From assembly GCF_003019035.1 (NCBI RefSeq), contig NZ_CP027447.1: a DNA stretch of 64,000 bases. One strand, 5' to 3'. The position numbers and the translations under genes are program-made. This document shows, piece by piece, positions 62,085 through 62,724 of this stretch (position 1 is its first letter; the number at the start of each line of letters is the position of its first letter). Under the pieces are notes generated by a model. It saw only the letters and a list, made by a program, of their open reading frames with translations. It ran no database searches and was not told the DNA's origin. This stretch comes from Escherichia coli. Its GTDB lineage: Bacteria > Pseudomonadota > Gammaproteobacteria > Enterobacterales > Enterobacteriaceae.

Positions 62085-62160
62085 TTAGCCCTTGCTTTAA
62101 CAATATTGACCAAAATCTCTTTTTAATATAAAATGAATCCTAAGAGGGATGGAGGTATAC

Positions 62161-62724
62161 ATGCTCAATGATAATAAAATTCGCACTGCATTAATAAATT
62201 TTTTACTGGCTAAAAAACCAGCGCCAGAAAGGATTATTGAAGAATTGCATATCGAGAACGGAAGAGCAATAGCTGATGTCGTAGCAGCATATAGTTATTT
62301 GCATTGCTACGAGATTAAAGGAGAGACTGATTCAATTGGAAGAATCCTTACTCAAGCTAATTATTATAATACTTCTTTCAACAAAATTACACTTGTAACT
62401 ACAAAAAATCATTTAACATGGGCATTAAAGCGTTCCCCATCCTTCTGGGGAATCATATTAGTAGAATTAAAAGATAATAACATTACTTTCAAATATATAA
62501 GGGGGGCTAAAGATAATATTTTCTTCAGAAAAGAAAATGCTTTCATGATGTTATGGAAGGACGAAATGTTGAAGGTAGCAAATGAAGCCTCTGTACCAGT
62601 TAAAAGATCACACACGAGGATGGAAATAGCCGAAATGCTTAGTAGTTCGCTTAAGAAAAGTGATGCTTTGCAAACTATACAAAGCATCATATCTAATCGA
62701 CTAAAATTAAGGGATGCAGTGTAA
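62161..62724 (+). CDS. Hypothetical protein (187 aa), possible partner of the Beta-protein-like gene
   Basis: ATG at 62161 with GGAGG 5 nt upstream (track ORF starts at 62149); 3' end overlaps the convergent gene by 18 bp. Confidence 0.55.
   Translation: MLNDNKIRTALINFLLAKKPAPERIIEELHIENGRAIADVVAAYSYLHCYEIKGETDSIGRILTQANYYNTSFNKITLVTTKNHLTWALKRSPSFWGIILVELKDNNITFKYIRGAKDNIFFRKENAFMMLWKDEMLKVANEASVPVKRSHTRMEIAEMLSSSLKKSDALQTIQSIISNRLKLRDAV

Follow-up and report, generated by a model that had tools for sequence, protein, structure and literature searches.

A short gene that runs tail to tail into a Beta-protein gene raises two questions: what its product does, and why the two genes face each other. 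The pair lies near the right end of the 64,000-nucleotide stretch of Escherichia coli DNA that we analysed (the window). A preliminary description had placed the start of the short gene at 62161 behind a GGAGG ribosome-binding site and had counted an 18-bp overlap of the two 3' ends; the sequence, the RefSeq annotation and the alignment of homologues bear out each of these points (Table 1). It had also guessed that the gene belongs to the sce7726 family, which it does.

Table 1. Features of the island and of the convergent pair, in window coordinates
Feature	Position	Strand	Remarks
P4-type integrase gene	53914-55161		island gene
Replication initiator gene	57165-58013		island gene
MOB-P-type relaxase gene	60250-61569		island gene; small mob gene upstream
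Interrupted inverted repeat, terminator-like	62041..62098	-	25-nt arms, then T6; MFE -32.3 kcal/mol
Sigma-70-like promoter candidate for sce7726	62106..62134	+	TTGACC, 17-nt spacer, TAAAAT; 10/12 matches
GGAGG ribosome-binding site	62151..62155	+	5 nt ahead of ATG 62161; direct sequence reading
sce7726 / Phage_P4_cII family gene	62161..62724	+	187 aa
Candidate terminator, GNAT-M78-Beta operon	62661..62689	-	12-bp hairpin, then CTTTTCTT
Tail-to-tail overlap of Beta and sce7726 coding sequences	62707..62724	both	18 bp
Beta-family gene	62707..63795	-	362 aa; PD-Lambda-2_C branch; stop codon 62707-62709
ImmA/IrrE (Peptidase_M78) gene, 3' end	63788..64000	-	cut by window end

The sce7726 gene and its predicted nuclease fold

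The open frame on the plus strand extends from 62149 to 62724, and its ATG at 62161 yields a protein of 187 residues. The same ATG is the RefSeq start in E. coli S19-651 (WP_032330846.1), and the homologues align from the methionine that it encodes (alignment A1). Against the NCBIfam model NF033832 (sce7726_fam) the protein scores 149.6 bits (E = 8.7e-44; curated cutoff 70), with residues 2-180 matched to model positions 1-182 of 184, which is full-length coverage. A homology search returned 303 homologues at E <= 0.001. Because of this E value against a curated family model and these 303 homologues, ORF 62161-62724 is, on sequence grounds, a real and functional gene and not a chance frame. 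Long open frames arise easily in an AT-rich context such as this one, and nothing further favours the idea that the frame is open by chance, or that the gene is an unrelated hitchhiker beside Beta. The family score, the homologues, the invariant residues, the confident predicted fold and the near-universal pairing with Beta led us to reject this idea, to which we give practically no credence. The gene name and family already stand in RefSeq, where 'sce7726 family protein' is the label of the same gene in four E. coli genomes, and this basic finding is not new.

The protein also matches the PADLOC model PDLC02989 'cll' (78.9 bits, E = 1.3e-22), which represents the cII protein of the satellite phage P4. 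P4 cII itself scores 375.9 bits on that model and 151.4 bits on NF033832, and its BLASTP alignment with the window protein spans 181 residues at 25% identity (E = 5e-14). All 120 homologues listed, of the 303 found, carry the Pfam family PF26915 (Phage_P4_cII); our local copy of Pfam-A predates this entry and therefore gave no Pfam match for the window protein. In the literature that we found, no role is assigned to cII, and sce7726 appears there only as an annotation label. PHROGs enters both families, Beta and cII, as of unknown function, and a 2024 survey describes the genes of the gop-beta-cII system as 'of unknown function' and the system as restricted to Proteobacteria.

Structure prediction confidently gives the protein a PD-(D/E)xK (restriction-endonuclease-like) fold. 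The alpha-beta-beta-beta-alpha-beta core occupies approximately residues 1-115 and is followed by a C-terminal helical domain (approximately residues 124-186), which lies outside the common PD-(D/E)xK core. The solved structure closest to the fold is 3dnx (SPO1766, uncharacterised); at the sequence level, a profile search of PDB sequences found no match. The preliminary description was mistaken in seeing no recognisable motif: D39 on strand 2 and E51-I-K53 on strand 3, together with Q65xxxY69, form the PD-(D/E)xK signature. Residues E28, D39, E51, K53 and Q65 are invariant among the sce7726 relatives in both alignments (39/39 and 51/51), and they recur in P4 cII and in homologues from Rhodococcus, Acinetobacter and E. 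coli plasmids. Fold prediction and conservation thus point confidently to a PD-(D/E)xK nuclease fold in which the residues for metal binding and catalysis are all in place.

Such a protein would be expected to cut DNA. In the main rival reading, the cII-type protein would use its nuclease fold to bind DNA and would serve as a sensor or regulator, not as an effector; for instance, it could recognise phage DNA ends or structures, or it could set how strongly the Beta operon or the island is expressed. XisH-type PD-(D/E)xK proteins, which control excision, provide a precedent. However, all 51 sequences keep the complete catalytic set (E, D, ExK, Q), which distant members also have, and such invariance is unusual for nuclease folds that only bind DNA. 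In addition, a Pfam-A search found no HTH or other standard regulator domain in the protein. We therefore consider a sensor or regulator unlikely, and we continue with the cII-type protein as a putative nuclease.

Beta, the genes upstream and the known relatives

RefSeq starts Beta at ATG 63795, and a longer TTG start at 63822 was rejected as an artefact of the ORF caller. Beta scores 182 bits on Pfam Beta_protein (PF14350) and about 160 bits, over its full length, on the PADLOC models for PD-Lambda-2_C (PDLC03983, PDLC03984). In PADLOC it matched PD-Lambda-2_C only, with no match to the P4-type 'beta' model PDLC02985 at E <= 0.1, and BLASTP gave no significant match to P4 beta. The predicted structure of Beta is a TIM barrel with enzyme-like conserved charged residues. 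Its structural matches among TIM barrels are generic and indicate no chemistry.

The M78 gene overlaps the start of Beta by 8 bp, and its remainder and the GNAT gene upstream of it lie beyond base 64000. We read these from the 99.5% identical locus of E. coli S19-651 (L001). That genome holds the whole cassette, about 2.9 kb from window base 62034 to the GNAT promoter, within NZ_CP075852.1, 2044670-2047900. The order of the four genes is GNAT, M78 and Beta on the minus strand, with sce7726 convergent. The M78 protein (282 aa) scores 160 bits on PD-Lambda-2_B, but it covers profile positions 175-396 of 402 only; it is without the N-terminal HTH half of that profile, and Pfam finds Peptidase_M78 alone. 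The first gene of the operon encodes a divergent GNAT of 210 aa with a weak match (23 bits) to Pfam Acetyltransf_10, and this protein matched nothing in PADLOC or NCBIfam. Neither M78 nor GNAT matched the PADLOC 'gop' model PDLC03001. In the profile search of PDB sequences GNAT had no match and M78 had insignificant matches only.

The backbone of the window is Escherichia (97.8-98.2% identity to E. coli). The island begins at tRNA-Leu(CAA), at 53640-53724 and next to ahr. The four-gene module forms the far end of this integrative mobilisable island (window 53640-61924), which also carries DUF6387 and an HTH gene. In E. coli S19-651 a second integrase gene follows, together with kinase and HerA-type genes. 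A search of 5,426 complete E. coli genomes found the module in only 4. Among the protein matches listed, the closest come from Salmonella, Klebsiella and Pseudocitrobacter. Because the four-gene block of E. coli XJW9B277 has a different left neighbour, with homology starting from window base 62034, we conclude that the four genes travel as a single cassette.

By family membership, the window pair is the beta/cII pair of P4, which belongs to a published defence system family. The P4 system, gop-beta-cII, is catalogued as Rst_gop_beta_cll in DefenseFinder and PADLOC. Its cII and the window protein both belong to NF033832 and PF26915, with nearly equal scores on the former (151 versus 150 bits), and both Beta proteins are members of PF14350. 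The topology is also shared, with Beta last in its operon and cII convergent on the 3' end of Beta, and each module belongs to the cargo of an element that has a P4-type integrase. The two differ in several respects. P4 has gop, whereas the window is without a gop homologue and has the M78 peptidase and GNAT genes upstream of Beta instead; P4 cII is 264 aa long with an extra C-terminal extension, whereas the window protein has 187 aa; and in P4 a gap of 27 bp with an annotated cII terminator separates the genes that overlap by 18 bp in the window. Cloned from P4, the system gives E. coli protection from lambda and P1, and gop is toxic when beta is missing (Rousset et al. 2022, PMC9122126). It kills cells upon expression of phage orf184 (bioRxiv 10.1101/2023.04.06.535777).

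The second relative is PD-lambda-2, in which A is HigB-like, B joins an Xre-HTH to an ImmA/IrrE peptidase, and C is Beta (Vassallo et al. 2022, PMC9519451). The order of peptidase and Beta is the same as in the window. There, however, A is replaced by a GNAT without PADLOC match, and the M78 protein is without the N-terminal HTH half of B. No E. coli protein was among the results of a homology search from the Beta that matches the PD-Lambda-2_C models best. On its own PD-lambda-2 B is toxic, A neutralises it, and defence requires C (PMC9519451). PD-lambda-2 was published as three genes with no cII, yet loci with its canonical layout can carry a convergent cII, as L073, L066, L074 and L075 do. 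The published clone reached just 396 and 387 bp past its three genes (PMC9519451). As an intact cII-type gene takes about 570 bp and the flanks are about 390 bp, the clone cannot have held one, and therefore the defence by PD-lambda-2 against lambda-vir did not need cII there.

These relatives bear on the idea of a restriction-modification-like pair, in which Beta, as a TIM-barrel enzyme, would place modifications on DNA or on a nucleotide, and cII would cleave DNA that has none. The match of Beta to TGT is no better than those to dozens of unrelated TIM barrels, the relatives are abortive-infection or cell-death systems with toxic components, and Beta with A and B gave defence without cII in PD-lambda-2. 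We find such a pair very hard to credit. In its genes and their layout, the module is a variant form within the defence family of gop-beta-cII and PD-lambda-2.

Conservation of the convergent Beta/cII pair

The preliminary description had noted that sce7726 genes usually accompany Beta. We collected sce7726 loci by a pattern scan from the sce7726 alignment, taking one genome per species, which yielded 50 loci from Gamma-, Beta- and Deltaproteobacteria, Campylobacterota, Verrucomicrobiota, Planctomycetota and two Asgard MAG contigs. Iterated HMM searches of six-frame ORFs found Beta convergent on sce7726 in 48 of them. In the same 50 loci an M78 gene lies on the Beta strand in 46 and a GNAT gene in 44. 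From stop to stop, 43 of the 48 pairs overlap (by 4-74 bp), two abut, two are separated by gaps of 4 and 9 bp, and one has an insertion of 1349 bp. The remaining two sce7726 genes are true orphans, beside a tyrosine recombinase gene and a topoisomerase III gene.

The co-occurrence holds in the reverse direction as well. A Beta profile search of 1.84 billion proteins gave 4,503 Beta clusters at E <= 0.001, and all ten sampled Beta representatives have a convergent gene that overlaps the 3' end of Beta by 4-83 bp; nine of these partners were confirmed as PF26915 and one was cut by a contig end. Viral contigs were scanned with the narrower clade alignment A4, as the broad Beta alignment A2 is without a sufficiently conserved stretch. 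In this independent viral clade sce7726 is convergent in 36 of 38 evaluable loci, and 33 of those 36 pairs overlap. In Rac-SA53 and in Gordonia phages, the tblastn matches to Beta and sce7726 are likewise arranged tail to tail. Among plasmid records with a Beta homologue the proportion is 19/28; where sce7726 is missing, the plasmid is mostly alphaproteobacterial and has Beta behind a fused HTH-M78 gene of about 430 aa. The gene is thus clearly conserved beside Beta homologues elsewhere, and the core is spread beyond Proteobacteria, in Actinomycetota, Bacillota, Verrucomicrobiota and Planctomycetota and in their phages.

What varies is the set of genes upstream of Beta. In P4 this is gop, and in the clade of the window it is GNAT and M78. 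L073 has a HigB_toxin gene and a gene for a 402-aa protein before Beta and cII, which is the canonical PD-lambda-2 layout plus cII. With cII present, Beta is preceded by a small ORF and HTH-M78 in L066 and L075 and by DUF6932 and HTH-M78 in L074; in L065 M78 stands alone upstream of Beta. The bare Beta/cII pair is found in E. coli pSTEC1024_3 / Rac-SA53, in Rhodococcus pLP414, in a Paenibacillus wynnii prophage and in most viral contigs. Because the upstream genes differ between loci, the conserved unit is Beta plus cII, and the upstream genes are decoration. Rst_gop_beta_cll and PD-Lambda-2, which are catalogued separately, share this one conserved two-gene core. The predicted folds of cII and Beta and the generality of the convergent core beyond what the literature describes appear under-described, and in the literature searched we found no description of the four-gene variant with GNAT and M78.

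So close a linkage raises the idea that Beta and cII are a simple toxin-antitoxin pair, with cII as the toxic nuclease and Beta as the antitoxin, that stabilises the island rather than defending the cell. Beta reportedly counteracts the toxic product of gop in P4 (PMC9122126, citing Ghisotti 1990), the pair is found alone on plasmids and prophages, and tight linkage is typical of toxin-antitoxin systems. However, L010, L013, L014 and L051 keep a sce7726 with all catalytic residues beside a fragmented or truncated Beta, and two sce7726 loci are orphans; on these grounds we rejected Beta as an obligatory antitoxin of cII. Moreover, the Beta of PD-lambda-2 is needed for defence and not for neutralising toxicity (PMC9519451), and a convergent orientation is atypical of type II toxin-antitoxin operons. 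A simple toxin-antitoxin pair is therefore quite improbable in our view, and we retain a putative anti-phage role for the module.

The conserved orientation could be partly inherited rather than selected. In the viral clade (L077-L118) the overlap ranges from 14 to 113 bp, and 32 of 33 lengths leave a remainder of 2 on division by 3, a single phase that is expected if the overlap is ancestral there. In the clade of the window the phases are mixed.

Several single loci are worth recording. In Marinibacterium anthonyi pLA6_006 (CP031591.1) an unannotated sce7726 gene (L057, 4528-5148; 131.9 bits) is convergent on a Beta gene annotated as hypothetical, with a 47-bp overlap and an HTH-M78 gene upstream. 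L059-L062 and L064, a distinct class on alphaproteobacterial plasmids, come closest to PD-lambda-2 as published with three genes: they have HTH-M78 and Beta without sce7726, sometimes beside HipA or reverse-transcriptase genes. L024 and L025, two Lokiarchaeota / Asgard-group MAG contigs of about 4.3 kb, carry a complete GNAT-M78-Beta/sce7726 module with identical scores; these could be the result of horizontal transfer or of bacterial contamination of the bins. Decayed or interrupted loci (L010, L013, L014, L051, L018, L103 and L116) have a fragmented or truncated Beta, or 0.45-1.5 kb between the genes, and the sce7726 of L010, L013, L014, L018 and L051 keeps all catalytic residues. NCBIfam sce7725, considered as a relative of Beta, gave sub-threshold N-terminal matches only (E = 0.01-0.1), and neither of the two orphan sce7726 loci has a sce7725 gene.

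Candidate transcription signals and a proposed model of the module

Two transcription units converge on the overlap, and the DNA around them holds candidate signals for both. The sigma-70-like site ahead of sce7726 is suggestive of its promoter; it is a consensus match only, in a region where promoter-like sites number 19 against 10.4 expected. On the other strand, the candidate terminator hairpin of the GNAT-M78-Beta operon begins 18 nt past the Beta stop, within the sce7726 coding sequence. A hairpin at the same offset (16-18 nt past the Beta stop) occurs in L003-L006, L008 and L009, and reaches relatives down to 48% protein identity. When the hairpins were aligned, 84% of cells were paired compared with 28-47% in slid controls, and three pairs had changed on both sides. 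The covariation score was reached by 0 of 500 shuffles, with only eight related sequences in the alignment. The hairpin thus shows compensatory changes as well as G-U pairs that hold only on the Beta strand. Over all loci, terminator-like hairpins past the Beta stop are not clearly enriched (10/47 versus about 6 expected), and a terminator-like site downstream of sce7726 was found in one of 47 loci.

The stronger terminator-like element is the interrupted inverted repeat at 62041..62098, whose T6 run is confined to the minus strand. Its place is just ahead of the promoter candidate for sce7726 and just inside the left edge (62034) of the block common to XJW9B277. It looks like an element that would stop Beta-strand transcripts after they have crossed sce7726 antisense, or that would insulate the mob genes. 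A strict terminator scan upstream of sce7726 found almost nothing in 49 loci, and it missed the interrupted stem of the window in the 99% identical L003; the repeat stays a local feature.

Given this anatomy, that is, a promoter-like site, a covarying hairpin, an upstream terminator-like repeat and no terminator for sce7726, the convergent overlap probably couples the two transcription units. The preliminary description had suggested antisense regulation, and from the conserved overlap and the arrangement of hairpin and terminators we infer that it may occur. Convergent restriction-modification gene pairs, in which the nuclease gene and its partner meet at their 3' ends and each transcription unit can disturb the other, offer an analogy. 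This analogy is regulatory only: the window has no methyltransferase and no evidence of DNA modification, and the relatives of Beta/cII act by cell death or abortive infection.

A simpler account is that the overlap reflects genome compaction only, and that the genes are linked at the protein level with no regulatory consequence. The overlap varies from 0 to 113 bp with no sequence conserved across clades; it covers the variable C-terminal tails of both proteins, and in the window its 18 bp encode tails for which alignments A1 and A2 show little conservation. In P4 a gap with a terminator takes the place of the overlap, and terminator-like sites past Beta are not clearly enriched overall. On the other hand, of more than 100 loci in several phyla and in phages, about 90% keep the orientation with overlap or abutment, and it stays while the upstream genes are repeatedly swapped. 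The viral clade shows one relative phase in 32 of 33 overlaps, and the hairpin of the window clade has compensatory changes and G-U pairs that work on the Beta strand only. A P4 paper of 1990 is also said to have described a mutation in the cII terminator with a temperature-sensitive phenotype, ascribed to reduced beta expression. We regard compaction as possible but not as the account to prefer, and we continue with regulatory coupling. The convergent overlap may explain why early P4 genetics connected expression of beta with the cII terminator. Being nearly universal, this overlap is an unusual and testable instance of gene-order conservation outside an operon.

Based on these results, we propose a model for the module that addresses its parts in turn. 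We think it reasonably probable that the sce7726 / P4-cII nuclease-fold protein and the TIM-barrel Beta form the core of a family of abortive-infection or toxin-antitoxin-like anti-phage modules in which the upstream genes are interchangeable. The Beta operon would supply the sensing and regulatory side. During infection the cII-type protein, as a latent DNA nuclease, would work together with Beta or at a step after it. From the upstream genes the module would gain a toxin/antitoxin-like switch, which here may consist of the M78 protease and the acetyltransferase. The convergent, 3'-overlapping layout would make the two transcription units interfere with each other, because Beta transcripts would end inside or beyond sce7726, whereas sce7726 transcripts would enter Beta without an intrinsic terminator. 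The fold assignments make direct mutational and biochemical tests of cII and Beta possible.

We would go further only tentatively. Beta and cII may be an ancient two-gene immune core that is shared across phyla, with the convergent overlap as a selected regulatory device; P4 and PD-lambda-2 would then be decorated versions of this core, and GNAT plus M78 a third decoration. If this is true, the three-gene definition of PD-lambda-2 omits a nuclease-fold gene that most of its relatives carry, and the acetyltransferase of the window takes the place of the gop or HigB toxin.

Other upstream arrangements add to the variety. L070 and L071 have an HTH gene, a gene for a 233-aa protein with no Pfam match, an M78 peptidase gene, Beta and cII; the product of 233 aa could be one more component of the GNAT-like or toxin kind. 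The module of L070 adjoins an MmeI-type restriction-modification gene. In L054 (E. coli pSTEC1024_3 / phage Rac-SA53), a lambdoid prophage-like plasmid, a divergent gene for a Hok-family type I toxin (3276-3488) lies about 500 bp upstream of the bare Beta/sce7726 pair.
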